Positions 29-19,158 of a stretch of DNA of 64,000 nucleotides are shown one piece after another. The notes under the pieces were generated by a model. The model saw only the letters and a list, made by a program, of their open reading frames with translations, made no database searches and had not been told where the DNA came from. Numbering within the stretch: position 1 is the stretch's first letter; every line of letters begins with the position of its first letter. Made by a program: the position numbers and the translations under genes. Source of the stretch: Candidatus Omnitrophota bacterium (GTDB lineage Bacteria; Omnitrophota; Gorgyraeia; Zapsychrales; Zapsychraceae); assembly GCA_035292445.1 (NCBI GenBank), contig DATDQB010000017.1, positions 55,051 to 119,050 on the forward strand. The letters are read 5' to 3'.

Positions 29-3000
29 ATGGGGACCGACCCCGCCATGCTGGGGGAAGAGCAGGCGCCAGACACCAGACGCCAAACGCAAGACGATCGC
101 GACGAAGCGATGGCAACCGAAGATGAGGAAGGGCTAAAAAGTTTGATCCGTCAATTGGCGAGCGGTAATAACGTGGATCCAATCGGCGTCCGCAGGCCGG
201 CACCTGCGGGGCCCGTCATAGACATAGCTTCCGCAATGAAATACGACTTTGCTTCTGATGGCGCGGATAACAAGCTGAATAGATGGAATTTGCGGTTTGA
301 AAATTATGAAATCAAAAGCATCAACCTGACAGATGGCGTTTATTATGCGGAATTTCGTTCTTTAGGAAATGCTTTGGGCGCACCGCACATCAGGCATGGT
401 TTAATCAACTCTCGGCAGCTTGATCAGATCATAAGGACGTTAAACAAGATAAGCCCACTCAATTTTATTGAGTTTGAAGGTCTGTTCAGGTATTACAGCG
501 GCTTTCTTGCCCCGCTAGAGGTAAATGAGAGCGAAGACGCCGTATCTTTTAGCTTGAGATGGAGCGGCCGCTCGTTGGATGGATATAAAATTGATGCATC
601 TGAACTTAAGGAGCATCGAGAGGTCGGGTTGACGCTAACAACGCCCAGCGGTGAAAAATCGGTGTTTATGAAAACCTCTGATTTTCTTAATTGGGTTATC
701 GCTCTCCAGCATTTATCGGCAGAAGGCAGGGTGGAGGAATTCAAGGGGCTTTTTGACCGCGAAGATAACGGCGGAATGATGGGCTTTGATTATGACTATA
801 AACTCCTTGATTTTGTAAAGCGACCCCCGCCGGCTTCAACGCCCATTAAGCAACCAAGAACCCTAGAGCAATTATATGATATCATTGCGGGCGCTGAAGC
901 CGGTGCAGCGCTATCCTCCTATACGTTACGCACCTATGACCCTCATAAAAGCATAACCATTACGGTCCTTGCTTACTTTTCCGATGATATTTTTGTTATT
1001 GAGTATTCCAGACCGGAAGAGAGTGGCCACCCCGCCATCAAAAGGCGCGGGTTGCTTAGAAAATATGATCTTGATCAGATGATTTTCGATAAGTATGATT
1101 CCATCAAAACATATATGGACTCCTATGATGCGGAAAGGCTCCCGAGAGAAATGTTTTATGTAGAAAAAACGGCTGAAAAGCTGGAGAAAAATGCATCAAG
1201 CCAATATGAGATCACCCTGGGCAGCTTCCATTATTACCACAATACCAATAAAATCGAGGCCAGTTTTGATCCGGCCATCCCGGATGATGTATCTGTTGAA
1301 ATTTATGATTTAGAAAAAGGGGTTCGGGTCAAAAAATCCGGTACGATGGGCTTTTTTGATTTTTTTGAGATAATAAAAACGGTGTATTTCGGAAGCTATG
1401 GTAATTCGTTCTTAATGGGTGCTCTGTCTGACATGCTCTTACTGAATGATTCTGCGAGCATGATCGCTGATAAGGATTATGGCGCGCGCAAAACCCTCGT
1501 GGCCATACGTTACATCAGGTCATGGCTTAATTCTGATGTGTTTAAGGCGAGCGTCTATAAACCTAAAATGCTGCCGAGCGCGGTCGATCTAACCGTGCAG
1601 AATATAATTCGATTTGACCGATCATTGGATGATGAAATTCAAGAAATTGTTGCCGCTTTATTCGGGGAAATGGGCGCCGCCCTGGGATTAAAAATAGAGA
1701 TATCAAAACGGGAGAACGGCACCTATATACACATCCGCCGAAAGCACGTATTAGGAAAAATTAAAGCTAACGTAACCGAATCAATAGACGACTTTACAAA
1801 AGGAATCCGCCAAAGCATGGGAACATGGTTAAAAGATTTTGAATCTCAGCTGTGGATTGTCCACGCACGGGAAGACGGTTTTGAGGTCATGGACCGACAA
1901 TCCGGCCGCAAGCCAGACCCCGCCATGCTTGGGGAAGAAGAGACGCCAGACGCCAGACGCCAGACACCACATGAACGCGATGAGGCGATGTTAAATATAA
2001 CCTTGAGAGAAGAAATGACTGCGGGAGAACTTGCCGAAAGACTGGGCATTAATATTGAAAGCATAGTTCTTATCTATGGAGAAAATGAAGAGCTGCCTCT
2101 TTTTATTCACCCGACACAAAACCATCCCAATCTGCCTTTAGAAACACAACGCACATATTACATAGACACAAAGAATTTGGATTCTGGAGTTCTGGCCCGA
2201 CTTTTTAATGCGGATTTCATCGGTGGCGTTGGTATTTCAGACATTAAAGAACTGCCTGAAGAAGAAGAGCTTGAAATGCGTTTCAAGATGGCATCGCAAC
2301 AAGTTACGCAAGCTCAAAAAGATTTAGAAGAAGCTCAGCGATCCGCTGATCGCACTGGAAATTATTCGCTAGTTCGTTCTAAAGATAGACTGTTAGAGCT
2401 TGAATTAGCCAACATGGATCGTACGTTAAAAGAACTGCAAAAATTTCGTACGCGAAAGGAAGGTGGCCAAAAGAAAGCTGATGAGGCGATGATGGGGAAG
2501 GAAGAACCGCACATCGTAGATCGCACTTCGTACATCGAAAAAGATAAGGCAATGACAGCTGTTAAACTTAGAGGTTTTACACATTTGGAGCCAACTAGTG
2601 GACGCAGATTTAATGAGGCTGTCTTTGATCTGGAGGGGGTTAACGAACCTGAAACGAACAATACCCACAGAAGATACAGAGAAAATATCGAACAATTGTT
2701 ATCAGATCATGAAGAAATACTCAAAGAACAGGAAAAATTACTTGCCGAAATAGAATCCGCTCTTGACCAAGGAAAAACAGTGGCTATCGGTGTCGAAGAA
2801 GATAGTCAAGGAGTTCAAGAAATCCAACTTGATGCGAGTTTCATTTTAGATCAGATCGTTGAACTCATGCGCATGAGAGGTTTTACTGCCCCCGAAGAGA
2901 AAGCCAGACAGGTATATTTATTAGGAAACGGTGTGGCAAGTTATCTCGTAGCGCTTAAGAAAAATATCCATCTGTTTCCGCTTGAAAACCAAGAATTACG

Positions 3001-3673
3001 TCAACAATCGGGTTCGCTTGCTAGGGAATATGCTGAAATATCGGAAAAATTGAAACCTATATTAATGGGAATTGCTGAATCTGAATTCATTTTATTCGAT
3101 GACACGCTGTATGAAGTAATACTGTCAATCAATGACCCGGATGAGATCTATACAACAATCAACAAATCTGCCGATGCGCTACTAGCAAAATTCCTTGGCA
3201 CTGAACATGAAGCCGATATACGCAGAATGATCGCAATCGCCTCAAAATTCATTCAAAATGCGAGGGAAAGAGAGAAGCCGATGGCAGCTGCAATCAAGGA
3301 ACATGTTCGATCCTATCCGGATTATATTACATTTATTCTTGTTGGCTCCAGCCATGTGGCTGGCTTAAACAGACTTCTAAACAAAAAAGATCAAGAAGTT
3401 GGTGGTATCGATCTTAACCCGCAACTCTTGGACCTTCAGATCAAACGCGATGAAAAGGGAGTACCGCTTCCCGTCAACATGCAGCCCATTCATAATATTC
3501 ATATCGAAGGATTCCTGCCGATCATTATCAACATAACACCGATCAATGTGTCGTTGCCGGTGTATTTGGGATTGGAGGGAGATGGGGAGGATGACACACA
3601 ATTTGGGTTTCAGGATGAATATAAGGCGAGGGAACCGGAGAAAATAAGTTTATTGGATAATAATCTCCAATAA
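29..3673 (+). CDS. large hypothetical protein (1214 aa); the reading frame is open back to window position 2, so it may be 5'-partial
   Basis: Long ORF without Walker or HExxH motifs. An acidic linker motif DEAM../DPAMLGEE.. recurs three times (aa ~1-35, ~630-660, ~815-825). There is a coiled-coil-like segment around aa 760-810. The C-terminal ..FILVGSSHVAGL.. segment weakly resembles the GxxH motif of the Tiki/TraB/GumN superfamily. Confidence 0.5.
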   Translation: MGTDPAMLGEEQAPDTRRQTQDDRDEAMATEDEEGLKSLIRQLASGNNVDPIGVRRPAPAGPVIDIASAMKYDFASDGADNKLNRWNLRFENYEIKSINLTDGVYYAEFRSLGNALGAPHIRHGLINSRQLDQIIRTLNKISPLNFIEFEGLFRYYSGFLAPLEVNESEDAVSFSLRWSGRSLDGYKIDASELKEHREVGLTLTTPSGEKSVFMKTSDFLNWVIALQHLSAEGRVEEFKGLFDREDNGGMMGFDYDYKLLDFVKRPPPASTPIKQPRTLEQLYDIIAGAEAGAALSSYTLRTYDPHKSITITVLAYFSDDIFVIEYSRPEESGHPAIKRRGLLRKYDLDQMIFDKYDSIKTYMDSYDAERLPREMFYVEKTAEKLEKNASSQYEITLGSFHYYHNTNKIEASFDPAIPDDVSVEIYDLEKGVRVKKSGTMGFFDFFEIIKTVYFGSYGNSFLMGALSDMLLLNDSASMIADKDYGARKTLVAIRYIRSWLNSDVFKASVYKPKMLPSAVDLTVQNIIRFDRSLDDEIQEIVAALFGEMGAALGLKIEISKRENGTYIHIRRKHVLGKIKANVTESIDDFTKGIRQSMGTWLKDFESQLWIVHAREDGFEVMDRQSGRKPDPAMLGEEETPDARRQTPHERDEAMLNITLREEMTAGELAERLGINIESIVLIYGENEELPLFIHPTQNHPNLPLETQRTYYIDTKNLDSGVLARLFNADFIGGVGISDIKELPEEEELEMRFKMASQQVTQAQKDLEEAQRSADRTGNYSLVRSKDRLLELELANMDRTLKELQKFRTRKEGGQKKADEAMMGKEEPHIVDRTSYIEKDKAMTAVKLRGFTHLEPTSGRRFNEAVFDLEGVNEPETNNTHRRYRENIEQLLSDHEEILKEQEKLLAEIESALDQGKTVAIGVEEDSQGVQEIQLDASFILDQIVELMRMRGFTAPEEKARQVYLLGNGVASYLVALKKNIHLFPLENQELRQQSGSLAREYAEISEKLKPILMGIAESEFILFDDTLYEVILSINDPDEIYTTINKSADALLAKFLGTEHEADIRRMIAIASKFIQNAREREKPMAAAIKEHVRSYPDYITFILVGSSHVAGLNRLLNKKDQEVGGIDLNPQLLDLQIKRDEKGVPLPVNMQPIHNIHIEGFLPIIINITPINVSLPVYLGLEGDGEDDTQFGFQDEYKAREPEKISLLDNNLQ
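68..95 (+). repeat. heptanucleotide tandem repeat (CCAGACA/CCAGACG/CCAAACG/CAAGACG) inside the CDS
   Basis: Direct reading: four imperfect 7-nt units in tandem. Confidence 0.8.
1946..1966 (+). repeat. heptanucleotide tandem repeat (CCAGACG x2 + CCAGACA) inside the CDS; part of a ~50-nt intragenic direct repeat also seen at 36-110
   Basis: Direct reading. The unit is not a multiple of 3, so changing copy number by one unit frameshifts. Confidence 0.85.
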
Positions 3674-3797: not shown

Positions 3798-4754
3798 TCA
3801 CCAAATAATTGATTTCACGCTTTTGGGCATTCCATGAATTTTCCCCACAAACCGCACTTCACGAATAAGGTCAAGATTAAACTTTTCCTTAGCCAGCGCC
3901 GCCATCATTTTGTGCAGCTCGAACACGTCTTTCGCCGTGCCGTTCTTTCTTTTGATGATAATATTGGCATGTTTGGGGAAGATATAAGCCCCGCCGGATT
4001 TTAAAGATTTGCCGCCGGCCTGCTCAAGAAACCACCCTGTGGCCTGGCGTTTTCCAGCCTTGGAGGTGGGTTCAATGTTGCGAAAGAATGATCCGGCACA
4101 AGGTTCTTGGGCAAGGTCAGGATGTTTCTCGTGACGCGTTTTTAAAATACCTTCACGCTCTTTAAGCAGTTCTGCCGGATCACCCTCTTTGAAGCTCAAC
4201 GTAACATCAACAACGATATCACCCGTCTCCTTGAGCTTTGAATGGCGGTAGGAGAAACCGCATTCCTTAGCCTGCGCCGTTCTAAGCGTCCCGGAGGAAG
4301 AGAGCAGGCTGACGCTTTTAACCATATCGCCGATCTGCTTGCCGAAAGCCCCCGCATTACCAACGACCGCGCCGCCCACTGTCCCCGGAATGCCGCTGCA
4401 GGTATTAATTCCTTCATAACCCAATTCGGCGGCAAAGACAGCCAGATCATCAAGGATCGTGCTGCCGGAAACTGTTAAGCTGTTATCGCCTTCTTCAATA
4501 TAGGGTGTCTTGCTGAAATAGCGGATCACGTGGCAATCCAGGCCCTCATCGGCAACGACCAGGTTTGACCCGCCGCCGATCAGGATGAATTTTTCTTTCT
4601 TTGCATAAAGCTCTTTGACCGCATCTATTAACTGCCGGGGCGTTTCACAATTGATAAGCCCCTTGCACGCTCCGCCCAAGCGGAAGGTTGTGTAATCGGA
4701 TAATCTGGCATTTTTAATAATTTCATGGGAGAGAGGAAAAATGATTGATTCCAT
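3798..4754 (-). CDS. murB: UDP-N-acetylenolpyruvoylglucosamine reductase
   Basis: 318 aa with an FAD-binding PCMH domain and a MurB C-terminal domain (..GSNLVVADEG.., ..AGSFFRN..). Confidence 0.9.
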   Translation of the reverse strand: MESIIFPLSHEIIKNARLSDYTTFRLGGACKGLINCETPRQLIDAVKELYAKKEKFILIGGGSNLVVADEGLDCHVIRYFSKTPYIEEGDNSLTVSGSTILDDLAVFAAELGYEGINTCSGIPGTVGGAVVGNAGAFGKQIGDMVKSVSLLSSSGTLRTAQAKECGFSYRHSKLKETGDIVVDVTLSFKEGDPAELLKEREGILKTRHEKHPDLAQEPCAGSFFRNIEPTSKAGKRQATGWFLEQAGGKSLKSGGAYIFPKHANIIIKRKNGTAKDVFELHKMMAALAKEKFNLDLIREVRFVGKIHGMPKSVKSIIW

Positions 4755-4818: not shown

Positions 4819-6390
4819 TTATTTGACCGTTTCTTTAAATCGATGACGTAGCGCCTCGATGCCGTCTTTGATGGCAAAAATATTCTCGTAACCTTCTTCG
4901 CGCAGCATCTGCGCCAATTGGGAGCTGCGTACGCCCATGCTGCAAAACAGAAGGTATTTCTTATTTTTGGCAAAAGGGGAGGTGTCGCCCGTGACCCGGC
5001 TTAAAGGAACATGTTCACTTTTGATTTCCATGAGTGGACTATCCGCCCGCTCTTCGGCTTCCCTGACATCGACCAACGTAAAACTTTTCAGCAAATCGGC
5101 ATTTAAGGCGTGGCAATCAATAAGAAATTCCGCCAACGGCTCATAATGCTCTTTACTGATCTGTGTGATGACGGCGTCTTTGCCGCACAGAGGGCAACGG
5201 CTTTCCGGTTTGATCTTCAAACGCCTGATATGGAAATCGGCGACGTTAAGAATCAACAATTCGTTCTCGAACACTTTCTGCATGTTTAGAATGATCCGGA
5301 TCGCTTCCATGGCCTGCAGATGGCCGAAAATGTTGGGGATGACGCCCAGGACGCCTCCGTCGACACATGTTCCCACGCAACCAGGTGTTGGAACGGAAGG
5401 CCACAAACAGCGCAGGCACCCTTTTTGAGAAGGGAGCATGACCCGCAACTGGCCTTCCCATTGAAAAATGCCTGCCTGGATGAGCGTCTTGCGGTTAAGA
5501 AAGCAGGCGTCGTTCAAAAGATATTTTGTTTTAATGTCATCGGTGCAATCAAGGACGATGTCATAGTTCTCGATAAGCCGTTGCGCGTTCTCAAGGTTCA
5601 GGTGTTCCTGGTGCGCGTTGATGGTAACGGAAGGGTTGAGCGAATTGATCTTTTCCTTGGCCACCTGGACCTTGGGCCGGCCGATGTCATCGAACCCGTA
5701 AAGGAACTGGCGGTGGAGGTTGCTGAGCTCAACTTTATCGTGTTCGCAAATGCCTATCGTGCCGACACCCGCCCCTGATAAGCTCATGAGCGCCGGGCAG
5801 CCCAAACCGCCGACGCCCACGATCAAAACCTTGGCCTCTTTCAATTTCTTTTGGCCTTCGGCGCCGACCTCGGGAAGATTGATCTGACGGGCGTAGTAAT
5901 CACTTTCTTCGGGTAACCGGTAACCGGTAACCGGTAACGGCGTGGAGTTACCTGTTACCTGTTTCCCGTACTCCGTTGATTTACAACCCACCCATCCCGA
6001 ATCGCCGCCCGCGTAATATTCCTTTTTCCAAATTGGCAACCGCTTTTTTATCTCATCTATGATATATCGGCAGGCTTTAAAAGCCTCATCGCGATGGGCG
6101 GCCAAGCATCCGACCCACACGGCCATTTGACCGACCTCAATGATCCCCAAGCGATGATAACAGCGAAGTTCGATCGTTGAGAATTTTTCCTTCGCCTCCC
6201 GAAAAATCTCCTCGGCCTCCTTCGTGCACAAGGTTTCTTCGGCTTCGTATTCCAGCCGCAGCACTTTCTTGCCATCGCTATGATCGCGCACACGGCCCTC
6301 AAATGTGGCGAAGGCTCCGGCGCTATCGGCGGTGAAGCCCTCTTTAATGTTGATGCGTTCTAAGGGGAGTGAGGTTAGTTTAAACATCAT
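4819..6390 (-). CDS. MoaE (molybdopterin synthase large subunit) - MoeB/ThiF E1-like adenylyltransferase - rhodanese triple-fusion protein
   Basis: N-terminus matches MoaE (..FEGRVRDHSDG..IWKKEYY). The middle has the ThiF/MoeB Rossmann motif (LIVGVGGLGCPA), RQ motif and CxxC..CxxC zinc site. The C-terminus is a rhodanese with catalytic Cys (FCSMGVRS). The first 15 codons of the track ORF (MLVVREQRTTNNEQR) are encoded by the repeat element at 6387-6450, so the start is set at MMFKL. Confidence 0.8.
   Translation of the reverse strand: MMFKLTSLPLERINIKEGFTADSAGAFATFEGRVRDHSDGKKVLRLEYEAEETLCTKEAEEIFREAKEKFSTIELRCYHRLGIIEVGQMAVWVGCLAAHRDEAFKACRYIIDEIKKRLPIWKKEYYAGGDSGWVGCKSTEYGKQVTGNSTPLPVTGYRLPEESDYYARQINLPEVGAEGQKKLKEAKVLIVGVGGLGCPALMSLSGAGVGTIGICEHDKVELSNLHRQFLYGFDDIGRPKVQVAKEKINSLNPSVTINAHQEHLNLENAQRLIENYDIVLDCTDDIKTKYLLNDACFLNRKTLIQAGIFQWEGQLRVMLPSQKGCLRCLWPSVPTPGCVGTCVDGGVLGVIPNIFGHLQAMEAIRIILNMQKVFENELLILNVADFHIRRLKIKPESRCPLCGKDAVITQISKEHYEPLAEFLIDCHALNADLLKSFTLVDVREAEERADSPLMEIKSEHVPLSRVTGDTSPFAKNKKYLLFCSMGVRSSQLAQMLREEGYENIFAIKDGIEALRHRFKETVK
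5912..5961. repeat. heptad-periodic palindromic element embedded in-frame in the MoaE-MoeB linker
   Basis: (ggtaacc)x3 ggtaac - ggcgtggag - (gttacct)x2; same architecture as the intergenic elements. It translates without a stop as ..QVTGNSTPLPVTGYRLPEE.. Confidence 0.75.
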
Positions 6391-6450
6391 TCGTTGTTCG
6401 TTGTTCGTTGTTCGTTGCTCGCGAACAACGAGCAACTAGCAACGAGCAAC
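6387..6450. repeat. heptad-periodic palindromic element between the ferredoxin 3' end and the moaE-fusion 5' end
   Basis: (ttgttcg)x3 ttgctcg | cgaacaa cgagcaa ctagcaa cgagcaa c - arms of complementary 7-mers. Confidence 0.8.
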
Positions 6451-6459
6451 AAAACTCTA

Positions 6460-6714
6460 TTAATATGTAATTTTCACTGTGCCTTTCAGGATGCTACATT
6501 GGCAACTCAAACGGTTATTGCGGTCCATCCCAAGCTCTTTTTCCTCATCGTTCAGATCGCCCAAATTATCCGCGCCTTCCTGCACTTCGATCTGGCACGT
6601 GCCGCACACGCCGGAATTGCAGCTGAAGGGGATCCCGGATTTCTCACAGACCTCATCGATCCTTGCGCCATCGGGAATATCGTGTTCTTCACCGTCTATG
6701 ATCAACTTTGCCAT
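6460..6714 (-). CDS. small 2Fe-2S ferredoxin (plant-type C-x4-C-x2-C..C motif)
   Basis: 84 aa with ..CNSGVCGTCQ.. and a downstream ..CQC.. Confidence 0.75.
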   Translation of the reverse strand: MAKLIIDGEEHDIPDGARIDEVCEKSGIPFSCNSGVCGTCQIEVQEGADNLGDLNDEEKELGMDRNNRLSCQCSILKGTVKITY

Positions 6715-6721
6715 AAGGAAT

Positions 6722-6832
6722 TAAGTTAATAGTAAATAGTTAATGGCAAATAGTGTTATCGTTCTAAATGGGGCTTCGTCGCCTTTTTGTCATTTCCCCT
6801 ATTAACTATTAACTATTTACCATTAACACTTT
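6722..6832. repeat. heptad-periodic palindromic element with a 47-nt spacer, overlapping the ispH stop
   Basis: Left arm taagtta atagtaa atagtta atggcaa; right arm tattaac tattaac tatttac cattaac. Confidence 0.75.
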
Positions 6833-7767
6833 CATTTTAATGCGTTTTCTATCTCCGGTAAAGCAAAGACAATATTCTTTTCCGGGTTCTCAAAGGCATG
6901 AACTTTGGAGTTGGGGAAATGCTCGTTAATGCGTCCGATCAGCTCATCCACAATGACGCGCGGCACGGAAGCGCCGGAGGAGATGCCGACCTTTCGCTTG
7001 CCCTTAAGCACATTGAAATCCAGCTCATCCGCATTGTCGATGATGTAGCTTTCGCAGCCGCCCTTTTCCCCGGTCTCGCGAAGGCGGTTGCTGTTGGAGC
7101 TGTTAGGGGAGCCGCAAATGATGATGCAATCGCAAAAGGAAGCGAGTTCCTTGACGGCATCCTGGCGGTTTTGGGTGGCGTAGCACAGATCCGAACGGGG
7201 CGGGGCCTGCATCTGCGGGTATTTCTCTTTTAACTTGCGGATCATCTGGGTGGTTTCATCCACGGAAAGGGTCGTTTGGGTGACAACGGCAACGGTTGCC
7301 TGCGGGGCGATATCCAAATTCTCAATGTCACTTTCGTCCTCTACAATATGAAGATATTCAGGGTCGACATACCCGGCCGTGCCTTTCAGCTCCTGGTGGC
7401 CGCGGTGGCCGATCAAAACGGTTTCATAATGTTTCTGGGAAAATTTACTGGCTTCGTTATGGACCTTGGTCACCAAAGGACAGGTGGCATCGACAAAACG
7501 CAGCTTTCTTTTCCTGGCATCCTGCACAACAGCAGGGGGAACGCCGTGGGCGCTGAAGATAATCCTTGAGCCTTCCGGCACTTCATTGACGTCCTCCACA
7601 AAGATCGCGCCTTTTTGACGAAACTCGTTGACTACGTAAGTGTTGTGGACGATTTCGTGGTAAACGTAAAGAGGGGGGCCGTATTGCTCAAGCGCCCTAT
7701 CGACTATGTCGATGGCGAATGACACGCCCGCGCAGAAACCTTGGGTTTTAGCAAGATAAATGTCCAT
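6832..7767 (-). CDS. ispH: 4-hydroxy-3-methylbut-2-enyl diphosphate reductase
   Basis: 311 aa LytB family (..TQGFCAGV.., ..DATCPLV.., conserved Cys triad). Confidence 0.9.
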   Translation of the reverse strand: MDIYLAKTQGFCAGVSFAIDIVDRALEQYGPPLYVYHEIVHNTYVVNEFRQKGAIFVEDVNEVPEGSRIIFSAHGVPPAVVQDARKRKLRFVDATCPLVTKVHNEASKFSQKHYETVLIGHRGHQELKGTAGYVDPEYLHIVEDESDIENLDIAPQATVAVVTQTTLSVDETTQMIRKLKEKYPQMQAPPRSDLCYATQNRQDAVKELASFCDCIIICGSPNSSNSNRLRETGEKGGCESYIIDNADELDFNVLKGKRKVGISSGASVPRVIVDELIGRINEHFPNSKVHAFENPEKNIVFALPEIENALK

Positions 7768-7860: not shown

Positions 7861-9078
7861 ATGCAACTAGCCCAAAGACGAAAAACATCAGCCGTTAAAA
7901 TCGGCCCTGTTTCTATCGGGAGCGCCTATCCGGTCGTGATCCAATCCATGACCGACACGCCAACGGCTGACATCGAAAAGACGCTTGCCCAAACGATCGA
8001 ACTCGTTGAGGCCGGAAGCGAGCTGGTGCGCTGGACCGTTAACGATGATGAGGCGGCCCAAGCCGTGCCGGAGATCATCAAGCGCTTAAATGACAAAGGC
8101 TACCAAACGCCGATCATCGGCGATTTTCATTTTAACGGCCACACGCTGTTACGCAAACATCCTGGCTGCGCCAAGGCGCTTTCCAAATACCGGATCAATC
8201 CCGGCAACGTGGGCAAGGGCCAACGGCATGATGACAATTTTACGCAGATCGTTAAAGTCGCCATTGATAACGACAAGCCGGTGCGCATCGGCGTCAACTG
8301 GGGTTCGCTGGACCAGGAACTTCTAACGCTCTTGATGGATGAAAACGCCAAACGGGATGAACCCAGCGATTTTAAAGAAGTCACCTACGATGCCATGGTC
8401 TTAAGCGCTTTGACCAGTGCGAAACTGGCGGAGAAGACCGGATTGCCGCACGATAAGATCATTTTAAGCGTGAAGATGTCGATCCTGCAGGATATGGTGA
8501 CCGTGTACGCGCGCCTCGCCAAACTGTGCAAGTATCCGCTTCATTTGGGATTGACGGAGGCCGGTTCCGAAGTACAGGGGATATCATCGAGTGCCGCCGC
8601 GCTTTCGATTTTACTGCAACAGGGGATCGGGGACACGATCCGCGTGTCGCTCACGCCGCAACCGAATGTCCCGCGCTCCAAAGAAGTCGACGTGTGCAAA
8701 AATATTCTACAATCGTTAGGCTTGCGATATTTCAAGCCGAGTGTCACCAGCTGTCCGGGCTGCGGGCGTACCTCCAGCAATTATTTCCAGATCCTCGCGC
8801 AGGAGATCAATGACCATATCGTACACAAAATGCCGGTGTGGAAAAAGAAACACCCCGGCGTTGAAAGATTGAAGATCGCGGTCATGGGTTGTGTGGTGAA
8901 CGGTCCCGGAGAGAGCCGCCATGCCGACATCGGCATCAGTTTACCCGGCGCTAGCGAGAAACCCATCGCGCCAGTTTATGTGGACGGCAAAGAAAAAATC
9001 ACCCTCAAAGGCGAGCGGATCAAGGAAGAGTTTATTGATATTTTAGAAAATTACATCAAAGAAAAGTGCGCAAAATGA
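7861..9078 (+). CDS. ispG: 4-hydroxy-3-methylbut-2-en-1-yl diphosphate synthase
   Basis: 405 aa GcpE family (..VIQSMTDT.., C-terminal ..[10 protein letters not shown]..). Divergent from ispH across an AT-rich region. Confidence 0.9.
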
Positions 9079-9278: not shown

Positions 9279-9770
9279 TTAATTTAATTCTTTTAACACG
9301 GTTAAGACTTCCGCCGTGTGGTCTTGAGGCTTGACCTTCTCAAAAATCTTCGCGATCTTGCCCGTTTTATCAATAATGAACGTCGTGCGCGCAACCCCCA
9401 TATAATCCCGCCCGTACATACTTTTCTTCGCCCACACGCCGTAATCCCGGCAAAGTTTTTTCTCCTCATCGGCTAAAAGCAGGAAAGGAAGCTTGAATTT
9501 TTCGATGAACTTCTCATGGCTTTTGACGCCGTCGGGGCTTACCCCTAAGACAACCGCGTTTTTACCTTCCATGGATTTGATCTCATCCCTGAACCCGCAG
9601 GCTTCCACCGTGCAGCCGGGGGTGTCGTCTTTCGGATAAAAATACAAAACAATGTTGCGGCCGCTGAAGTCATTTAAGGAAACGGTCTTGCCGTTTGAGG
9701 CGAGCAGGTTGATGGCGGGGGCCTTGTCGCCGACTTTAAGTAAGGGCGGGGTCACCCCGCCTCTACTCAT
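9279..9770 (-). CDS. bcp: peroxiredoxin (thiol peroxidase, Bcp/PrxQ family)
   Basis: ..FYPKDDTPGCT.. peroxidatic Cys motif. The start is taken at the second Met (MSRGG). Confidence 0.85.
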   Translation of the reverse strand: MSRGGVTPPLLKVGDKAPAINLLASNGKTVSLNDFSGRNIVLYFYPKDDTPGCTVEACGFRDEIKSMEGKNAVVLGVSPDGVKSHEKFIEKFKLPFLLLADEEKKLCRDYGVWAKKSMYGRDYMGVARTTFIIDKTGKIAKIFEKVKPQDHTAEVLTVLKELN

Positions 9771-10230
9771 AGGGGCTCCATATTTTTGTTTTCGGATCAT
9801 AGATTTCTTTTTTAATCTTTTCTTTGGGCAAGCCGTCTTCCAGCGGCCACGCCGTTACTTCGACCTTATTGCCGTCAATGTCAAAAAAATAGAGCGACCA
9901 GGACTTGGAGCGTTTTTTAGCGAAACCGATCTTCGTATTATTGTCTTCCAAACGCTTGATCATCGGGTCAAAATCCTTGGCGTGGACCTGAAAAGAGAAG
10001 TGATTGGCGCCTAGGCCTTCGTCCTTGAAAAGATGGACGTCATTGGTGTTATCCGCCTGGATGATGCCGATCAAAGCGCGCGGACCGCAATCAAGGAAAA
10101 CCTCGATGCCCGGTTTCGATGGCTCGCGCTCGGTGATCTTTAAGCCGACAACTTTCGTATAAAACTCGACCGACTTATTGATGTCGCGCACGTTGATGGC
10201 AACGTGGTCAATTCCTTTAATTTCAATCAT
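9763..10230 (-). CDS. glyoxalase / bleomycin-resistance (VOC) family protein
   Basis: 155 aa with ..IDHVAINVRD.. and paired beta-alpha-beta-beta-beta modules. Confidence 0.7.
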   Translation of the reverse strand: MIEIKGIDHVAINVRDINKSVEFYTKVVGLKITEREPSKPGIEVFLDCGPRALIGIIQADNTNDVHLFKDEGLGANHFSFQVHAKDFDPMIKRLEDNNTKIGFAKKRSKSWSLYFFDIDGNKVEVTAWPLEDGLPKEKIKKEIYDPKTKIWSPYE

Positions 10231-10253
10231 GTAAATACCCCTTTAAATGACAT

Positions 10254-10349
10254 CTTAGTCATAAGTTATAAGTCGTAAGGAGTAAGTATTCTGCCCGTCA
10301 TAACGCTGTTTTATCCTTACCGCTTACAACTTACTACTTATAACTTAAC
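10254..10349. repeat. heptad-periodic palindromic element overlapping the 3' end of the PHP phosphatase gene
   Basis: Left arm gtcataa gttataa gtcgtaa ggagtaa; 28-nt spacer; right arm ccttacc gcttaca acttact acttata acttaac. Confidence 0.75.
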
Positions 10350-11141
10350 AGTTCGTTCTATTTTCCTATTCTTAAATAATACATACTCTGCGTACCCGGC
10401 TTCCTTGGCCAGCGCGACGGCCGCTTCAAAATCCGCGCCGACATGCTCCGGCTGGTGGGCATCAGATCCAAAGGTAAGAGGGACGCCGGCTTTTCGATAA
10501 ATTTTAAGGAAGTTGAGCGCCGGATACATTTCTTTGCAGGTTTTGCGCAGCCCCGAGGTATTGATCTCGACCGCCACCCCGCATTCTTTGAACGTCTGGG
10601 CGGTTTTCTTGACCTCATCGCTCATGTCTTGGCTGGCCCGGTGGCCGAATTTCTTGACCAGGTCCACGTGGCCCATGATGTCGAACATTTTCGAGCGGGC
10701 GCTCTGGCGCAGCAGGTCAAAATAGTCGCGGTACACCTGGTTCACGTCTTGTTCATCCCACGCCTTGCGCTGCGCCGGGTCATCGAAGCCCCAATCCTTG
10801 ATAAAGTGCACGGAACCGATGACGTAATCATAGGGGTAGTCATCCAGGATCTTTTTCGTTTTATCTTCGTAACCGGGGATAAAATCCGCTTCGATGGCGA
10901 CTTTGATGCGCAATTCATTTTTATACAACGTGCAGACTTCTTCGATCATGCGGTAATACGAAGGCAGCTGCTCCATGCCCATCGTGATCCCAGGATCACG
11001 CATGTGAACAAAAGGGGCATGGTCGGAAAAACCGATCTCCTGCAATCCAACTTTAATGGCCTGCTTGGCGTACTCTTTGGGCTCGCCGGTGGCGTGGCCG
11101 CAAAGGGGCGTGTGCATGTGATAATCACAAATGGGTTTCAT
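10338..11141 (-). CDS. histidinol-phosphatase, HisJ family (PHP domain)
   Basis: 267 aa with ..DYHMHTPLCGHA.. and PHP metal-binding His/Asp motifs. Confidence 0.8.
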   Translation of the reverse strand: MKPICDYHMHTPLCGHATGEPKEYAKQAIKVGLQEIGFSDHAPFVHMRDPGITMGMEQLPSYYRMIEEVCTLYKNELRIKVAIEADFIPGYEDKTKKILDDYPYDYVIGSVHFIKDWGFDDPAQRKAWDEQDVNQVYRDYFDLLRQSARSKMFDIMGHVDLVKKFGHRASQDMSDEVKKTAQTFKECGVAVEINTSGLRKTCKEMYPALNFLKIYRKAGVPLTFGSDAHQPEHVGADFEAAVALAKEAGYAEYVLFKNRKIERTVKL

Positions 11142-12823
11142 CGAAGTTGCTCGTTGATGATTTCGTTTATCTTATCTTGTGCAGATTGATTCCGCGGCTC
11201 CAAGCTCAACACCTTCTTGAAATCTTCCAGCGCTTTGGGATAATTTTTCATCGCGTAATAGCACATCCCGCGGTTGACGTAGGCGTTGGCATACGAATCG
11301 TTTGATTCCAGCGCTTTGGTGTAATCTTTAAGCGCCAGATCATACATCCCGGACATCAAGTACTGATTGGCGCGGTTATTATACGCCTCAAAATGCTGGG
11401 GGTTGTGTTCGATCGCTTTGGAATAATACCTGATGGAGCCGGTTCTGTCAAATTTTAGTGCCAGAATATTGGCCAACTTAAAATAGCCATCGGCCAAATC
11501 CGGCTGCACCTCGATCATCTTCATGAAATAAACCATGGCCTCATCGAAGCGATGCTGCTCTTCCAGATAAACCCCCATGTTATTATAGGCCAGGTAGGCG
11601 TTCGGGAAAAACCGGATCACGTTGCTCCATAAACAACCACTATTTTGCCAAATCCTGGTCTGCTGGTGACTGAGCCTGACAAGCGCCCCCAGCCAAATGA
11701 TAAAGATAAAAATAATGAGGCCCTTTAACCAGTAAATATTTTTTTGCATTCCCCGCTGAAGCGCGTAGGCGATCAGGATAAAGAACCCCAGCGACGGCAA
11801 ATACATGAACCTTTCATAAATGATGGAATCGTTCATCTGAAACAGATGCAGCACCGGCCAAATGGTAAAGGCATAAAAGAGAAAACAAAACTTCACCAAA
11901 GCCGAGCGGCGGAACGTGACCGCAATCAAAACCGCCCCCAAAACGATCAATAAAACGGATAAAATCACGATCGTCCAGGTGATTGTCGGCGCGTAATAGC
12001 AGGTGAGAGGATACGGAATGACAACCTTAATGATGTACATAACAAACGCCAGGGCGGAATACAAAACCCGTTCCCAAAACGGATACATGGCCGTATTGGG
12101 AAACGCCTCGACTTGGCCGATGATCCTTAACGTAAAGATCCCGTGAAGAAAAGCAATCAGGAAAAACGGCCATTTTTCGATGACGGAACTTCTGCGGAAG
12201 CCTTTTTCCCTATAATAATCAATGGCGATCAACACGAGCCCAAAGGTAACAGCCGTGGCTTTGGACAATAAAGAAAGAATGAAGCATACATAAGTCAACG
12301 GTTTGGCATATCTGGCGGCTGGCGTCTTGGAAAGAGATTGGAGATAGCTCATCAACCCTAAAAGGTAAAAAAACATAAAAAGCACGTCTTTGCGGGAGCT
12401 GATCCACGCCACAGGCTCGACCTGCAACGGATGGACCCCGAATAACAAAGCCGCCATCAAGGCAATTTCTGCGTTGGCCAGCAAGATCCGGACAAAAACA
12501 AAGACCAAAAGGGTGTTAAGAATATGCAGCGCCATGTTCGTCGCATGGTACGCCTTGGGGTTGAGCCCGAAGAACCGATATTCCAGCGCATAACTTAGCA
12601 TCGTTAACGGATGATATTTACCGGTCAAATTTGTCGTAAATATTTTTTTTACATGCTGCGGCGACAGGCTGCGGATGGCTTCATTCTCGAGGACATATTC
12701 GTTATCGTCCCAATTGACAAAATCGTTATTGAGGGCGGGATAAAAGCAAAAAAACGTCGCTATCAGGATAATCAGCAACAGAAAAAGTTCACGGGTTCTT
12801 GAGGAATACGGGAGAGCCGGCAT
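11138..12823 (-). CDS. TMTC/PMT-like GT-C membrane glycosyltransferase (DUF1736-like) with C-terminal TPR repeats
   Basis: Polytopic N-terminal domain with a first-loop acidic motif (NWDDNEY), and three or more C-terminal TPR units. Paralog of 55218-57020. Confidence 0.6.
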   Translation of the reverse strand: MPALPYSSRTRELFLLLIILIATFFCFYPALNNDFVNWDDNEYVLENEAIRSLSPQHVKKIFTTNLTGKYHPLTMLSYALEYRFFGLNPKAYHATNMALHILNTLLVFVFVRILLANAEIALMAALLFGVHPLQVEPVAWISSRKDVLFMFFYLLGLMSYLQSLSKTPAARYAKPLTYVCFILSLLSKATAVTFGLVLIAIDYYREKGFRRSSVIEKWPFFLIAFLHGIFTLRIIGQVEAFPNTAMYPFWERVLYSALAFVMYIIKVVIPYPLTCYYAPTITWTIVILSVLLIVLGAVLIAVTFRRSALVKFCFLFYAFTIWPVLHLFQMNDSIIYERFMYLPSLGFFILIAYALQRGMQKNIYWLKGLIIFIFIIWLGALVRLSHQQTRIWQNSGCLWSNVIRFFPNAYLAYNNMGVYLEEQHRFDEAMVYFMKMIEVQPDLADGYFKLANILALKFDRTGSIRYYSKAIEHNPQHFEAYNNRANQYLMSGMYDLALKDYTKALESNDSYANAYVNRGMCYYAMKNYPKALEDFKKVLSLEPRNQSAQDKINEIINEQLR

Positions 12824-12887
12824 TGCCCATGATTATAACATATCACCATTTCAATAAATATAACCATTTCATCCCTTTTTAGGACAA

Positions 12888-12916
12888 TTGACACCTCCGG
12901 GCGGCTATGTTATCAT
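12888..12916 (+). promoter_or_regulatory. sigma70-type promoter TTGACA-N17-TATCAT
   Basis: Direct reading; lies upstream of the reductase start at 12949. Confidence 0.5.
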
Positions 12917-12948
12917 GCCGCTTACTCGAAACAACCGACACCCTCAAA

Positions 12949-13674
12949 ATGACTCAACCATCAAAACCAACGGTACTGATAACAGGCGGCGCCAAGCGCA
13001 TCGGCAAGGCGATCTGCCTGGCCTTGGCCAAGGCGGGCTATAAAATCGCCCTTCACTACCAGCATTCCCACCAGGAAGCCTTGGGAGTACTGAAACAAAT
13101 CAAGAAAAACAAAGGCCAATGCGAGCTGTTTGCCTGTGATCTGTCCAAGGACCGGGCAACGGGACAGCTCATCAAAATGGTCAAAAAAACCTGCCCGGAC
13201 CTAAGCATCCTCGTTAACAACGCGTCCATCTTTGAAAAATCAAATATAAGATCGGCATCATTAGCCTCGCTGAACAAACATTTCGATATCAATTTCAAAG
13301 CGCCGTTTATCTTAACGCAGGAATTCACGAAGGCCTGCCGGAATGGATTGATCATCAACATCCTGGACACCAACATTGTCAGAAACACCGGCCATCATGC
13401 AACGTATCTTTTATCAAAAAAAGCGTTGGCCGAGTTGACCAAAATGAGCGCCGTTGAGTTAGCCCCGTCCATCCGCGTGAATGCGGTTGCGCCGGGATTG
13501 ATCCTCCCGCCTGAAGGCGAAACAGCGGCTTATTTAGACCGAAGGGTCAAAGCCATCCCTTTAAAAAGAAAAGGCGATGCAGCGCAAATCGCCCAAACGG
13601 TCTTGTTTCTCATCGAAAACCCTTACGTAACCGGGCAGATTATTTTCAATGATGGGGGGGAGCACTTGATTTAG
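12949..13674 (+). CDS. pteridine reductase-like SDR (FolM/PTR1-type)
   Basis: TGGAKRIG glycine motif (TGx3RxG, typical of FolM/PTR1) and a YxxxK SDR core. Sits next to folB-folK. Confidence 0.65.
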   Translation: MTQPSKPTVLITGGAKRIGKAICLALAKAGYKIALHYQHSHQEALGVLKQIKKNKGQCELFACDLSKDRATGQLIKMVKKTCPDLSILVNNASIFEKSNIRSASLASLNKHFDINFKAPFILTQEFTKACRNGLIINILDTNIVRNTGHHATYLLSKKALAELTKMSAVELAPSIRVNAVAPGLILPPEGETAAYLDRRVKAIPLKRKGDAAQIAQTVLFLIENPYVTGQIIFNDGGEHLI

Positions 13675-13735
13675 TTCTAAGCCATAAGCCTTAAGCTGTA
13701 AGCTTACGGCTTACAACTTACGACTTACAACTAAC
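13675..13735. repeat. heptad-periodic palindromic element
   Basis: ttctaag ccataag ccttaag ctgtaag | cttacgg cttacaa cttacga cttacaa. Confidence 0.8.
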
Positions 13736-13747
13736 AATTCAATTAAC

Positions 13748-14101
13748 ATGGCTATTATAAGAATTACTAATCTGAAATTACGCTCGATCATCGGCATCAA
13801 CGATTGGGAACGCAAGAAGAAACAGCGGGTGGTCATCAACATCGCCATCCGTTTCAATGCCGCCAAGTCCAGCCAAAGCGACGGGATCGGCGATACCATT
13901 GACTATAAATCCATTACCAAGAGGATTATTAAAAAAGTCACTGGCTCCCGTTATTACTTATTAGAGAAACTTTGCCAAAAGGTCCTGGATATCATCATGG
14001 AGCATAAAATGGTCAAAGAAGCCCTTGTCCGCATTGACAAGCCGGGGGCGCTTCGCTTCGCCGATTCCGTTTCGGTCGAGCTGAGCGCGAAAAGACGATG
14101 A
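13748..14101 (+). CDS. folB: dihydroneopterin aldolase
   Basis: 117 aa FolB fold (..LRSIIGINDWER..). Confidence 0.8.
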   Translation: MAIIRITNLKLRSIIGINDWERKKKQRVVINIAIRFNAAKSSQSDGIGDTIDYKSITKRIIKKVTGSRYYLLEKLCQKVLDIIMEHKMVKEALVRIDKPGALRFADSVSVELSAKRR

Positions 14102-14481
14102 ACACAGCGGTTATCGGGATCGGCTCCAACATCAGCCCCCAAAAAAACGTCAAGAAAGCAAAGAATCTCCTGGCACAGACATTCCATGTCCTCAAAGAAT
14201 CCGCCTTCATCCAGACCAAACCCGTCGGTTACACGGATCAGGGCGATTTTATCAACGGGTCGGTGTATATTGAAACGGCCCTGCCCATAGAAAAACTGAG
14301 CCAGAAAATGAAAAAACTGGAAAAACAGTTAGGCCGCAGCGCCTCTCCCATCAAATACGGCCCGCGCACGATCGATCTGGATATTGTCGTTTTTAACGGG
14401 GAAGTGGTGGACCATGATTTCTACGAAAGGGATTTCCTTAAAAACGCCGTTTTGGAGTTGATTCCCGACCTTCGATATTAA
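14098..14481 (+). CDS. short HPPK paralog (2-amino-4-hydroxy-6-hydroxymethyldihydropteridine pyrophosphokinase-like)
   Basis: ..IGIGSNI.., ..RTIDLDIVVF... Shorter (127 aa) than the canonical folK at 33735. Confidence 0.65.
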   Translation: MNTAVIGIGSNISPQKNVKKAKNLLAQTFHVLKESAFIQTKPVGYTDQGDFINGSVYIETALPIEKLSQKMKKLEKQLGRSASPIKYGPRTIDLDIVVFNGEVVDHDFYERDFLKNAVLELIPDLRY

Positions 14482-14509
14482 AATCTCTCTCAACGGGCCG
14501 AATTTTTAC

Positions 14510-14538
14510 TTGCAAAACCTTAAACCCTTGCTATTATA
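14510..14538 (+). promoter_or_regulatory. sigma70-type promoter TTGCAA-N17-TATTAT; the predicted TSS falls at or near the fabG ATG (leaderless)
   Basis: Direct reading. Only 5 nt separate the -10 from the ATG and there is no SD. Confidence 0.5.
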
Positions 14539-14543
14539 TCCAC

Positions 14544-15284
14544 ATGAAATTTAAAGACAAAATCGCCCTCGTCACCGGCTCCACTCGCGGCATCGGTAAA
14601 GAGATCGCTTCCGCCTTCGCGCAAGAAGGGGCTACCACCATTATTATGGGCCGCAATGCCGATACCGCTCAATCAACCCATAAAGAACTCGTCAAAAAGG
14701 GGCTGAAAGCCGATAGCTTTGCCTGTGATGTTACAAACCCGCAAAATGTGCAGGAAATCGTTCAAAAAATTATTGACAAATATAAGAGGGTTGATATATT
14801 AGTAAACAACGCCGGCATTACCAAAGACAATTTACTCTTTCGGATGAGCGATGCAGACTGGGATGAAGTCATGAGCGTGAACCTGAAAGGGGTTTTTAAT
14901 TGCACCAAAGCTGTATTAAAGGTAATGCTTAAAGCCAAAACGGGCAGGATCATTAACATATCTTCGATCATTGGAATTATCGGGAATGTCGGTCAGGCCA
15001 ATTATGCGGCCAGTAAAGCAGGGATCATCGGCTTTACCAAATCGATTGCGCTGGAGATGGCCTCGCGGGGCATCACGGTCAATGCCATCGCACCAGGCTA
15101 CATCGAAACCGATATGACCGCCCAACTTAAAGACACGACCCGTGAAGCGTTACTGAAAGGTATCCCGCTGGGACGTTTTGGGAGTGCCCGCGATATCGCC
15201 GGGGCGTGCTTATTCTTAGCTTCAGACGAAGCAAACTATATAACAGGACAGACAATCGTCGTTGATGGTGGGATGGCGGTTTAA
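14544..15284 (+). CDS. fabG: 3-oxoacyl-ACP reductase
   Basis: 246 aa SDR (TGSTRGIGK, YxxxK); upstream of acpP-fabF. Confidence 0.9.
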   Translation: MKFKDKIALVTGSTRGIGKEIASAFAQEGATTIIMGRNADTAQSTHKELVKKGLKADSFACDVTNPQNVQEIVQKIIDKYKRVDILVNNAGITKDNLLFRMSDADWDEVMSVNLKGVFNCTKAVLKVMLKAKTGRIINISSIIGIIGNVGQANYAASKAGIIGFTKSIALEMASRGITVNAIAPGYIETDMTAQLKDTTREALLKGIPLGRFGSARDIAGACLFLASDEANYITGQTIVVDGGMAV

Positions 15285-15308
15285 AGCTCTTCTTACAAAG
15301 GAGGAACA

Positions 15309-15548
15309 ATGGCAGTCGAAGAAAAAATTAAGTCAATCATCGCGGAGCAATTAGGGGTTAAGCCGGAAGAAGTCGTTCCGGATGCTTCATTTATCGATGA
15401 TTTAGGAGCTGACTCTCTCGATACGGTGGAACTCATTATGGCGTTAGAAGAAGAATTCGGCATTGAAATTCCCGATGAAGACGCGGAAAAAATGACTACC
15501 GTCGGTGATGCCGTCAAGTATATCGAAGAGAAAACAGCGAATAAGTAA
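15309..15548 (+). CDS. acpP: acyl carrier protein
   Basis: 79 aa with the DSL phosphopantetheine site (..[11 protein letters not shown]..). Preceded by SD aaaggagg. Confidence 0.95.
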
Positions 15549-15580
15549 ATACCATTGATCGTTAAACACCGACATTTTAA

Positions 15581-15615
15581 AATGCCTCGGCTTACTTGCC
15601 GAGGCATTCTATTAT
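15581..15615 (+). terminator. intrinsic terminator / attenuator between acpP and fabF
   Basis: aatgcctcggc-ttactt-gccgaggcatt, followed by ctattat. Confidence 0.6.
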
Positions 15616-15621
15616 AGAGAT

Positions 15622-19086: not shown

Positions 19087-19158
19087 CTTATTGGTTTCCT
19101 GTTTCCTGTTACCAGTTACCTGTAATTATCTGGTAACGGGTAACGGGTAACAGGTAAC
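19087..19158. repeat. heptad-periodic palindromic element
   Basis: cttattg gtttcct gtttcct gttacca gttacct g | taattatc | tggtaac gggtaac gggtaac aggtaac. Confidence 0.8.

Follow-up and report, generated by a model that had tools for sequence, protein, structure and literature searches.

A single gene in the window, i.e., the whole stretch of 64 kb that was analysed, joins a MoaE domain, a linker, a MoeB/ThiF-type E1 domain and a rhodanese in one polypeptide. Most probably this fusion combines MoaE, as catalytic subunit of the synthase for molybdopterin (MPT), with the E1–rhodanese that recharges its sulfur carrier, the gene for the carrier (moaD) having been relocated and the neighbouring ferredoxin serving IspG and IspH. 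It is an ordinary enzyme, with textbook chemistry in each domain, in an undescribed fusion; in the literature searched we found no description of a MoaE–MoeB fusion or of Moco synthesis in Omnitrophota. While the fusion leaves the understanding of Moco synthesis unchanged, it offers a natural single chain in which to study how MoaD is handed over among E1, rhodanese and MoaE. The gene and its parts are as follows.

4819..6387, minus strand: fusion gene MoaE–linker–MoeB/ThiF–rhodanese, 522 aa plus stop
5983..6387, minus strand: MoaE domain, residues 1-135, Pfam PF02391
5920..5982, minus strand: disordered linker, residues 136-156, pLDDT <50, differing between relatives in both length and sequence
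5188..5919, minus strand: MoeB/ThiF E1 adenylation domain, residues ~157-400, Pfam PF00899
4822..5130, minus strand: rhodanese domain, residues ~420-522, active-site C482 and R487

The presence of one gene and not two at 4819..6387 is confirmed. The enclosing reading frame (4819..6435, minus strand) is open throughout, without frameshifts or stops, and the same architecture was found in more than 120 homologues, with alignments spanning 95-100% of the fusion length, so the two-gene alternative that a preliminary description of this DNA had allowed for has failed. An AlphaFold2 model (mean pLDDT 89.8) consists of three folded domains and the disordered linker. The ATG at 6387 is most likely the true start, because a database protein of 522 aa (P0001) is 100% identical to the fusion from this position and because its relatives share the N-terminus MF(K/Q)L.

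All three domains scored above the Pfam gathering scores, and the triple fusion proposed in the preliminary description is real. The MoaE domain matched PF02391 at 2.6e-31 (108.6 bits, cut-off 23.4) and PDB MoaE chains at E-values of 1e-17 to 1e-25. Its residues R34, H98, R99, K114, K121 and E123 correspond to R39, H103, R104, K119, K126 and E128 of E. coli MoaE (catalytic and substrate-binding residues in the numbering of P30749), the offset having been checked by PDB-chain alignment. All six catalytic residues, which might have been lacking, are thus in place, and their columns are invariant across 84 MoaE-domain proteins, a single H103R being the sole exception.

The E1 domain matched ThiF (PF00899) at 4.3e-78 (262 bits) and contains the motifs GxGGLG (191-196, the Rossmann GxGxxG) and NLHRQ (223-227), together with K239 and D283. 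The conserved ATP-site residues, equivalent to R73, K86 and D130 in E. coli MoeB, are invariant in 55 fusions, 14 of them without MoaD. A four-Cys zinc site, already noted in the preliminary description, is predicted from C324/C327 (CLRC) and a CPLC pair, both conserved, and the invariant C341 aligns with MoeB C187 and ThiF C184, the equivalent of the crossover-loop Cys of ThiF and Uba4. The modelled E1 structure resembles ThiF and MoeB (TM 0.92-0.96), and Uba4 (6yub), an enzyme composed of E1 and RHD, appeared as the best full-length structural match of the model. The rhodanese domain matched PF00581 at 1.5e-06 (29 bits, cut-off 22.2); it has the catalytic Cys reported for it, in a C482-x4-R487 loop of which the Cys and Arg are retained in 14/14 MoaD-less fusions. 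The fusion also scored highly against the NCBIfam models for MoeZ and the SAMP-activating E1, but it missed the equivalog cut-offs (PRK08762, 305 vs 449 bits; MoeZ, 262 vs 647 bits), and these profile scores class it as belonging to the family without being an equivalog of the curated MoeB/MoeZ models, which are full-length.

Each part of the fusion has counterparts in known systems. As in MOCS3, Uba4 and mycobacterial MoeZR, a rhodanese bearing the catalytic Cys comes after the E1 at the C-terminus, and the Zn CxxC pairs and crossover-loop Cys are shared; however, these characterised enzymes have no MoaE, whereas the window protein carries one at its N-terminus via a ~20-residue linker, so that its bacterial chain corresponds to a fusion of human MOCS2B with MOCS3. 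The same MoaE catalytic residues and MoeB ATP- and Zn-site residues are found in E. coli MPT synthase (MoaD2–MoaE2) and its separate MoeB, and members of the fusion family are likewise housed in moaA–moaC–moaD operons, but in the window MoaE and MoeB form one polypeptide and MoaD is missing from the locus. MoaX (MoaD–MoaE), MoaD–MoeB(R) and MoaC–MoaE also fuse consecutive steps of Moco sulfur transfer (PMC11237513; PDB 9jbd); they contain the carrier or MoaC, whereas the window fusion contains neither.

The same MoaE–MoeB–rhodanese fusion is spread over many phyla, in ~100 clusters at 50% identity, and its surroundings there point to its function. Outside Omnitrophota, a GG-terminated MoaD (PPVAGG) lies directly upstream, abutting the fusion, in 36 of 37 loci, moaA and moaC occur within 10 kb in 33-34 of these 37, and the context consists exclusively of Moco genes. 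We therefore regard the fusion as a molybdopterin-synthase and MoaD-activating enzyme, and, since it is elsewhere almost always found beside a separate MoaD, as one that still requires a separate carrier. Molybdopterin, one of the pathways suggested beforehand, is accordingly the pathway, while the idea of a special, self-contained sulfur-carrier hub is not supported by the comparison. A two-gene module of MoaD and fusion (Hydrogenedentota, Steroidobacteraceae, Oligoflexia, Vampirovibrionales and others) is annotated in databases but uncharacterised; its full-length fusion is orthologous to the window gene, with 38-50% identity and the same domain order. In the module MoaD abuts the fusion and moaA and moaC are present, whereas in the window's clade MoaD has been lost and the arrangement is ispH–fdx–…–murB. 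MoaD has been described as seldom adjacent to MoeB (Iyer et al. 2006, PMC1779556); in the fusion family, by contrast, MoaD directly precedes the fused MoeB.

The chemistry that we propose would follow this Moco context. Established Moco biochemistry runs through adenylation of the carrier, its thiocarboxylation, its docking and the conversion of cPMP to MPT. In the fusion, the E1 domain would adenylate a MoaD-type carrier at its C-terminal glycine, and a cysteine desulfurase would load the rhodanese Cys with a persulfide, which would turn the adenylate into a thiocarboxylate. The charged carrier would then dock on the MoaE domain within that one chain, and two such transfers would convert cPMP to MPT. 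The fusion is not self-sufficient, the carrier most likely being supplied from a gene elsewhere.

The E1–rhodanese could also be a general activator of a shared or other ubiquitin-like carrier (ThiS, TtuB- or CysO-type) encoded elsewhere, in which case the loss of moaD would be a switch to a multifunctional carrier and not simple relocation. The full-length structural match to Uba4, the high scores for MoeZ and the SAMP-activating E1, and C341 as the ThiF/Uba4 crossover-loop Cys are in keeping with such a role, as is the documented dual role of MoeZR (PMC3227635). We nevertheless consider it unlikely, given that across ~170 loci no thiamine, tRNA-thiolation or CysO/CysM genes were linked to the fusion, that its context elsewhere is exclusively Moco, and that the E1 domain has been dropped altogether in sister lineages, which is hard to square with an essential general role.

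In the window, the fusion belongs to an operon with the following neighbours.

7861..9078, plus strand: ispG (GcpE), divergent from ispH
6832..7767, minus strand: ispH (LytB), first gene of the operon (ispH–fdx–moaE)
6460..6714, minus strand: plant-type 2Fe-2S ferredoxin (fdx), 84 aa, Cys 32, 37, 40 and 71
6388..6462, minus strand: fdx/fusion spacer of 72 nt, with a hairpin formed by (CAACGAA)n and its complement
3798..4754, minus strand: murB, conserved downstream gene of the operon

The preliminary description had reported no MoaD nearby, and every search of the 64 kb agreed with it. An ORF scan of the window found no small GG-terminated ORFs resembling MoaD or ThiS, the few short ORFs that end in GG having no ThiS-family match, in a profile search whose positive controls did match PF02597. 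There was no tblastn match in the window to the MoaD, MoaA or MoaC of relatives. An HMM made for this purpose from the MoaD of 72 relatives gave a best E-value of 1.5 on the six-frame translation of the window. The spacer of 72 nt is too short for moaD. By inspection, the remaining genes of the window are housekeeping genes (arg, lys/dap, type II secretion/pilus, recA, alaS, his), none of them related to sulfur carriers.

Across 90 Omnitrophota-type loci the gene order is ispG, then ispH–fdx–(moaD)–moaE…–murB, then moaA, and the extended conserved cluster comprises ispG, ispH–fdx–(moaD)–moaE–murB and moaA–nifU–nifS–sufBD. The order ispH–fdx–moaD–fusion is kept in loci L010, L133, L143, L165 and L169. 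In the window's lineage moaD, formerly directly upstream of the fusion, has been deleted from the operon. Losses of MoaD and of ThiF–Rhd were repeated and independent across the IspH tree, and at least 50 loci have only fdx–moaE, with MoaD, E1 and rhodanese all absent within 6 kb. None of the ~90 loci has a damaged MoaE, and its pairwise identity is 45-63%. MoaD-less loci of three types come from the MAGs JAGVNC01, JAHFFX01, JAGOSC01, JAHFFY01, CAYJRN01 and CAYXGG01 (complete fusion), MHGQ01 (MoaE–Rhd), and JAHFGL01, JAHFGK01 and CAZIRV01 (MoaE alone). This repeated loss of MoaD and E1 beside an always-intact MoaE raises the question of where the carrier is located. MoaD/ThiS was not found within 6-10 kb of ~80 MoaD-less relatives, and among the 120 MoaD homologues listed none was matched to the contigs of MoaD-less loci. 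Most likely the gene for the carrier lies at another site of the genome, e.g., in a moeA–mobA–moaD cluster. Clusters of resB–ccsA–moeA–mobA–moaD without MoaE were found in L167 (GCA_964612665.1) and L170; their MoaD is 59-62% identical and sister to the cis copies of the ispH operon, and the Omnitrophota-type C-terminal domain of the window is also found in L167. An unannotated 83-aa ORF near moaA in L001 was considered as a divergent MoaD and rejected (hydrophobic, Cys-rich, no GG). The linker motif 'LPVTG', which might have imitated the tail of MoaD from within the fusion, is disordered and conserved in no relative, and was likewise rejected.

The same pattern of loss might be read as decay of Moco synthesis in the clade, with the fusion a leftover and MPT no longer made. 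The repeated losses of MoaD and ThiF–Rhd would fit this, as would an in-frame deletion of ThiF in one lineage (L074 and L104) and the absence of moaA, moaC and MoaD alike from the 64 kb. However, 14/14 MoaD-less fusions have kept every catalytic residue of MoaE, E1 and rhodanese, and MoaE is intact throughout the ~90 loci; residues kept at such pairwise identities imply long-term purifying selection. With the window gene itself free of frameshifts and stops, and moaA beside the operon in most relatives, yet missing from the window together with moaC, we hold decay to be improbable.

The ferredoxin, encoded 72 nt upstream of the fusion, is the operon neighbour that the preliminary description took it to be. 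It matched Fer2 (PF00111; 1.6e-11, 44.4 bits, cut-off 21), with no match to the ThiS family (PF02597) in the Pfam search, and PDB ferredoxins with E-values down to 3e-12. The four Cys of its motif CNSGVCGTC…C (CX4CX2C…C) are invariant in 93 sequences. IspG and IspH are known to take electrons from plant-type ferredoxin (PMC12605070, PMC8717598), and by analogy the window ferredoxin is most likely their electron donor; it would reduce these two [4Fe-4S] enzymes and possibly also the nearby radical-SAM MoaA. Like the apicoplast and cyanobacterial ferredoxins of IspG/IspH, it is a small beta-grasp protein with the CX4CX2C…C pattern, here placed after ispH and opposite ispG, but it has only 84 aa and belongs to a separate, highly conserved family of Omnitrophota, always followed by moaD/moaE. 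The cluster points to a candidate dedicated MEP-pathway ferredoxin in an uncultured phylum.

Gene order cannot decide the partner of the ferredoxin, since in a ferredoxin-centred metagenome scan 80/80 loci had ispH on one side and moaD/moaE on the other (median gaps of 13.5 nt from ispH to fdx and 0 nt from fdx to moaE). The preliminary description had connected its beta-grasp fold with the missing MoaD, and the fold is indeed common to ferredoxin and MoaD (PMC1779556). Extended, this would make the ferredoxin a partner of MoaE at the MoaD dock, or a source of electrons or cluster sulfide, with MPT made without MoaD/MoeB. The fdx–moaE pair is the invariant core of the 90 loci, fdx ends where moaE begins, as is typical of moaD–moaE, and the loci with fdx–moaE alone might be explained in this way. 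However, nine loci, plus L165 and L169, hold both ferredoxin and MoaD, which speaks against replacement, and the ispH–fdx–moaD–fusion order implies that the ferredoxin predates the loss of MoaD. Its sequence is alike in loci with and without MoaD; the cluster ligands are kept, and the C-terminus is a buried, conserved VK(V/I)TY in place of a flexible GG tail. Furthermore, MoaE keeps every residue of thiocarboxylate chemistry, and the coupling of the ferredoxin to ispH, whose need for ferredoxin is known, is as tight as that to moaE. We know of no precedent for a ferredoxin replacing MoaD as partner of MoaE, and think such a partnership very improbable. We give equally little credence to the broader version, in which MoaE works without MoaD/MoeB in most of the clade, partnered by the translationally coupled ferredoxin and sometimes a retained rhodanese as sources of electrons or sulfur for the formation of the dithiolene, with the window's fusion as an intermediate of this replacement. 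If it were true that the carrier is wholly absent, it would be very surprising for MPT to be made with no MoaD. The ferredoxin is outside the sulfur relay and is not a stand-in for MoaD.

The fdx–fusion junction also differs in length between the window, at 72 nt, and its relatives, at ~0 nt, and the hairpin of the window's spacer folds with an MFE of -29.2 kcal/mol (z -4.6).

The genes at and around the fusion are arranged as follows:

3798..4754, minus strand, murB
4819..6435, minus strand, 538-codon open reading frame (ORF) containing the fusion gene
6460..6714, minus strand, fdx, encoding an 84-aa ferredoxin (Fer2)
6832..7767, minus strand, ispH
7861..9078, plus strand, ispG, divergent from ispH

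The preliminary description had proposed a MoaE–MoeB–rhodanese triple fusion, and the profile search run on the 538-codon ORF bears this out: the matches to MoaE (residues 30-132, E = 2.6e-31), ThiF (residues 181-415, E = 4.3e-78) and Rhodanese (residues 453-529, E = 1.5e-06) all exceed the curated Pfam cut-offs, in a numbering 16 higher than that of the 522-aa protein. Among NCBIfam models, MoeB and MoeZ came nearest to the middle and C-terminal part, with scores below their equivalog cut-offs. Since a database protein 100% identical to the fusion is 522 aa long and the relatives begin with MF(K/Q)L, we place the real start at the ATG at 6387. The objection that the ORF might be two genes fails, because more than 120 homologues share its architecture and align over 95-100% of its length. 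An AlphaFold2 model with 48 homologues as input (mean pLDDT 89.8) predicted that the three domains are well folded and that residues 136-156 form a disordered linker; its best full-length Foldseek match was Uba4, which likewise has an E1 (ThiF/MoeB) domain and a rhodanese, and ThiF and MoeB matched with target-normalised TM-scores of 0.92-0.96.

Catalytic residues were compared with E. coli MoaE and MoeB reference sequences, whose register agrees with PDB coordinates. MoaE R39, H103, R104, K119, K126 and E128 are all kept in the window, disposing of the concern that the N-terminal domain might lack them; 84 MoaE-domain relatives keep them too, apart from one H103R. The MoeB P-loop glycines, N70, R73, K86 and D130 are invariant in the aligned fusions, as is C341, the counterpart of MoeB C187 and ThiF C184, in 48 sequences. 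The zinc site and rhodanese cysteine noted earlier are present in the window; the four zinc cysteines also occur in 12 of the 14 fusions from loci without moaD, and the rhodanese Cys and Arg in all 14. At the level of sequence, nothing suggests a pseudoenzyme in any domain.

A genome scan for the fusion returned 80 loci from many groups, including Omnitrophota, Hydrogenedentota, Ignavibacteria, Melainabacteria/Vampirovibrionales, Oligoflexia/Bdellovibrionota, Steroidobacteraceae and other Proteobacteria, Acidobacteria, Bacteroidota and Armatimonadota. When a 191-aa fragment across the MoaE–ThiF junction was searched against 50%-identity cluster representatives (E<=1e-30), 108 matched, nearly all in one stretch across the junction, so the family comprises about 100 clusters at this identity level. 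In 36 of the 37 loci outside Omnitrophota, a MoaD whose last residues are PPV(A/S)GG stops at the fusion start, the remaining locus being cut by a contig end, and moaA and moaC lie within 10 kb in 33-34 of the 37 (typically moaA–moaC–mobA-like–moaD–fusion in Hydrogenedentota). The normal unit of the family is thus two genes, moaD and fusion, and the abutting MoaD and nearby moaA and moaC indicate a function in molybdopterin (MPT) synthesis and MoaD recharging. The pathway had therefore been named correctly, while the idea of a self-contained hub gives way to a fusion normally partnered by a separate moaD. Its chemistry is canonical, and the family is widespread, database-annotated and unpublished: annotation pipelines already assign both functions, and the literature searched held no description of a MoaE–MoeB fusion, which is not among the described fusions MoaD–MoaE, MoaD–MoeB(R), MoaC–MoaE and MoeB–rhodanese (PMC1779556, PMC11237513). 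Two of the loci compared, L040 (a Fimbriimonadaceae MAG) and L041 (a Methanoregulaceae archaeon MAG), both carry a bacterial-type fusion, and the last 30 residues of their MoaD differ at one position; the archaeal contig is probably a binning contaminant.

The absence of MoaD near the fusion was upheld throughout the 64 kb. No small ORF ending in GG (<=8 residues after) was carrier-like or matched ThiS in Pfam, tblastn with the relatives' MoaD, MoaA and MoaC found no match, and a MoaD HMM from 72 relatives reached a best E-value of only 1.5 against the six-frame translation. The fdx–fusion spacer is 72 nt and filled by a hairpin, leaving no space for a degraded moaD, and what lies next to murB is not moaA but a large protein that matches no Pfam family. 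Intergenic hairpins occur at 6388-6462, 6715-6835, 13671-13734, 19094-19158 and 20444-20528, with arms in which tandem repeats of ~7 nt, such as (CAACGAA)n, (TAATAGT)n and (GTTACCxG)n, face their complements, and with RNA folds as low as about -29 to -31 kcal/mol (z about -4.5). As the relatives' ispH–fdx and fdx–fusion junctions measure only 0-14 nt, it looks as if a hairpin-forming element had inserted at these places specifically in this genome.

The loci nearest the window share the order ispG(-), ispH–fdx–[moaD]–moaE…–murB, moaA(-), often followed by nifU–nifS–sufBD. When only the ferredoxin was used to seed a metagenome scan, 80 further loci were recovered (63-86% identity), with the same gene order in 80/80. 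Across 90 classified loci the operon took the following states.

States of the Omnitrophota operon
MoaE alone, no MoaD: 50 loci, with 4 more truncated at a contig end
Fusion without MoaD, as in the window: 14 complete loci, with 5 more truncated at a contig end and 1 more without a rhodanese match
MoaE–rhodanese fused, or MoaE and separate rhodanese, no ThiF, no MoaD: 7 loci
MoaD and MoaE: 4 loci
MoaD and fusion: 3 loci (plus 2 cut)

Two additional loci of relatives (L165, L169) read fdx–moaD–fusion. MoaE is the constant element. The states are interspersed on a neighbour-joining tree of IspH, so the operon has lost MoaD and the E1–rhodanese part in several independent events. Such repeated losses would fit a molybdenum cofactor (Moco) pathway decaying in the window's clade, but we consider decay quite unlikely given catalytic residues that are intact across deep divergence. 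In L074 (2445-3308) and L104 (4116-4979), ThiF is excised in frame and MoaE joined straight to rhodanese; these and L106, L113, L121, L124 and L163, which encode a MoaE–rhodanese protein or MoaE then a separate small rhodanese, have no MoaD or E1 nearby. Directly after moaE, L001 (11532-11900) carries a 122-aa PterinBD-DUF4346 (PF14251) gene, found likewise in L072, L084, L088 and L094-L096 and absent from the window, whose product could be a pterin (cPMP/MPT) binder linked to MoaE. Long-range synteny with L001, L165 and L169 extends over window 9279-16866 (AhpC/peroxiredoxin, glyoxalase, PHP phosphatase, SDR, folB, folK, fabG/fabF, and folE in relatives), so that pterin (folate) genes lie within a few kb of Moco genes.

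The stand-alone 2Fe-2S ferredoxin reported beside the fusion is, as judged from its conserved residues, a real cluster-binding ferredoxin. Its motif PFSCNSGVCGTCQ…RLxCQC is essentially invariant in 93 sequences, the ligand set is the plant-type CX4CX2C…C, and the nearest solved structures are 2Fe-2S ferredoxins. The invariant ligands, together with a conserved C-terminal VK(V/I)TY strand without Gly-Gly in the 93 sequences, rule it out as a cryptic MoaD. Nor did it replace MoaD, since both coexist in fdx–moaD–moaE loci; the suggested link to the missing carrier does not hold. That the ferredoxin partners MoaE and makes MoaD dispensable is highly improbable: the fdx–moaE pair is universal and abutting (median gap 0 nt), yet the ferredoxin is equally tied to ispH (median gap 13.5 nt, 1 nt in 22 loci), occurs alongside MoaD, has the same sequence with or without it and has no tail, and MoaE retains its thiocarboxylate-handling residues. 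The ferredoxin's partner cannot be assigned from gene order alone. In plastid-type systems IspG and IspH are established to receive their electrons from a plant-type ferredoxin (PMC12605070, PMC8717598), and that of the window is encoded beside ispH and opposite ispG, in a cluster type that also holds the radical-SAM enzyme MoaA; it is probably the low-potential electron donor to the cluster's [4Fe-4S] enzymes.

As fusions without MoaD keep the adenylation site, rhodanese and MoaE intact, selection is still maintaining an enzyme dependent on a GG-terminated sulfur carrier, whose gene most likely lies at another site in the genome. The data would also accommodate, as an unlikely reading, an E1–rhodanese part that serves as a general, MoeZR/MOCS3-like activator with a shared carrier, and this does not exclude such a distant carrier gene. 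An Omnitrophota MoaD profile, followed by inspection of the genomic context of its matches, recovered further copies within the ispH operon (L165, L169) and two in another Moco cluster, resB–ccsA–moeA–mobA-like–moaD (L167, 6123-8279; L170, 6220-8240), which adjoins hemA and hemH and has no MoaE nearby. These two MoaD share 59-62% identity with the Omnitrophota operon copies and are their sister in a neighbour-joining tree. Among the 120 MoaD matches listed, none had a contig of the same length as that of a MoaD-less locus. L167 also encodes a C-terminal domain, 'GGIDL…PVIINI.P', whose other occurrences in the loci compared are confined to Omnitrophota-type loci, the window with its 1214-aa ORF among them. 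The moeA–mobA–moaD cluster is a candidate site of the missing gene, and from these separate loci it is plausible that moaD would have moved there from the ispH operon.

The window ORF with this domain (29-3673, plus strand, open at the left end) encodes a protein of >1214 aa without a Pfam match and with an internally repeated motif, 'DPAMLGEE.PD.RRQT..RDEAM'. Its C-terminal ~90-aa domain, 'GGIDLNP…G(F/L)xPVIINI.P', ends other large proteins too, recurs only in Omnitrophota-type loci (L005, L113, L121, L135, L137, L144, L146, L167) and may have a sorting or anchoring role specific to this lineage.
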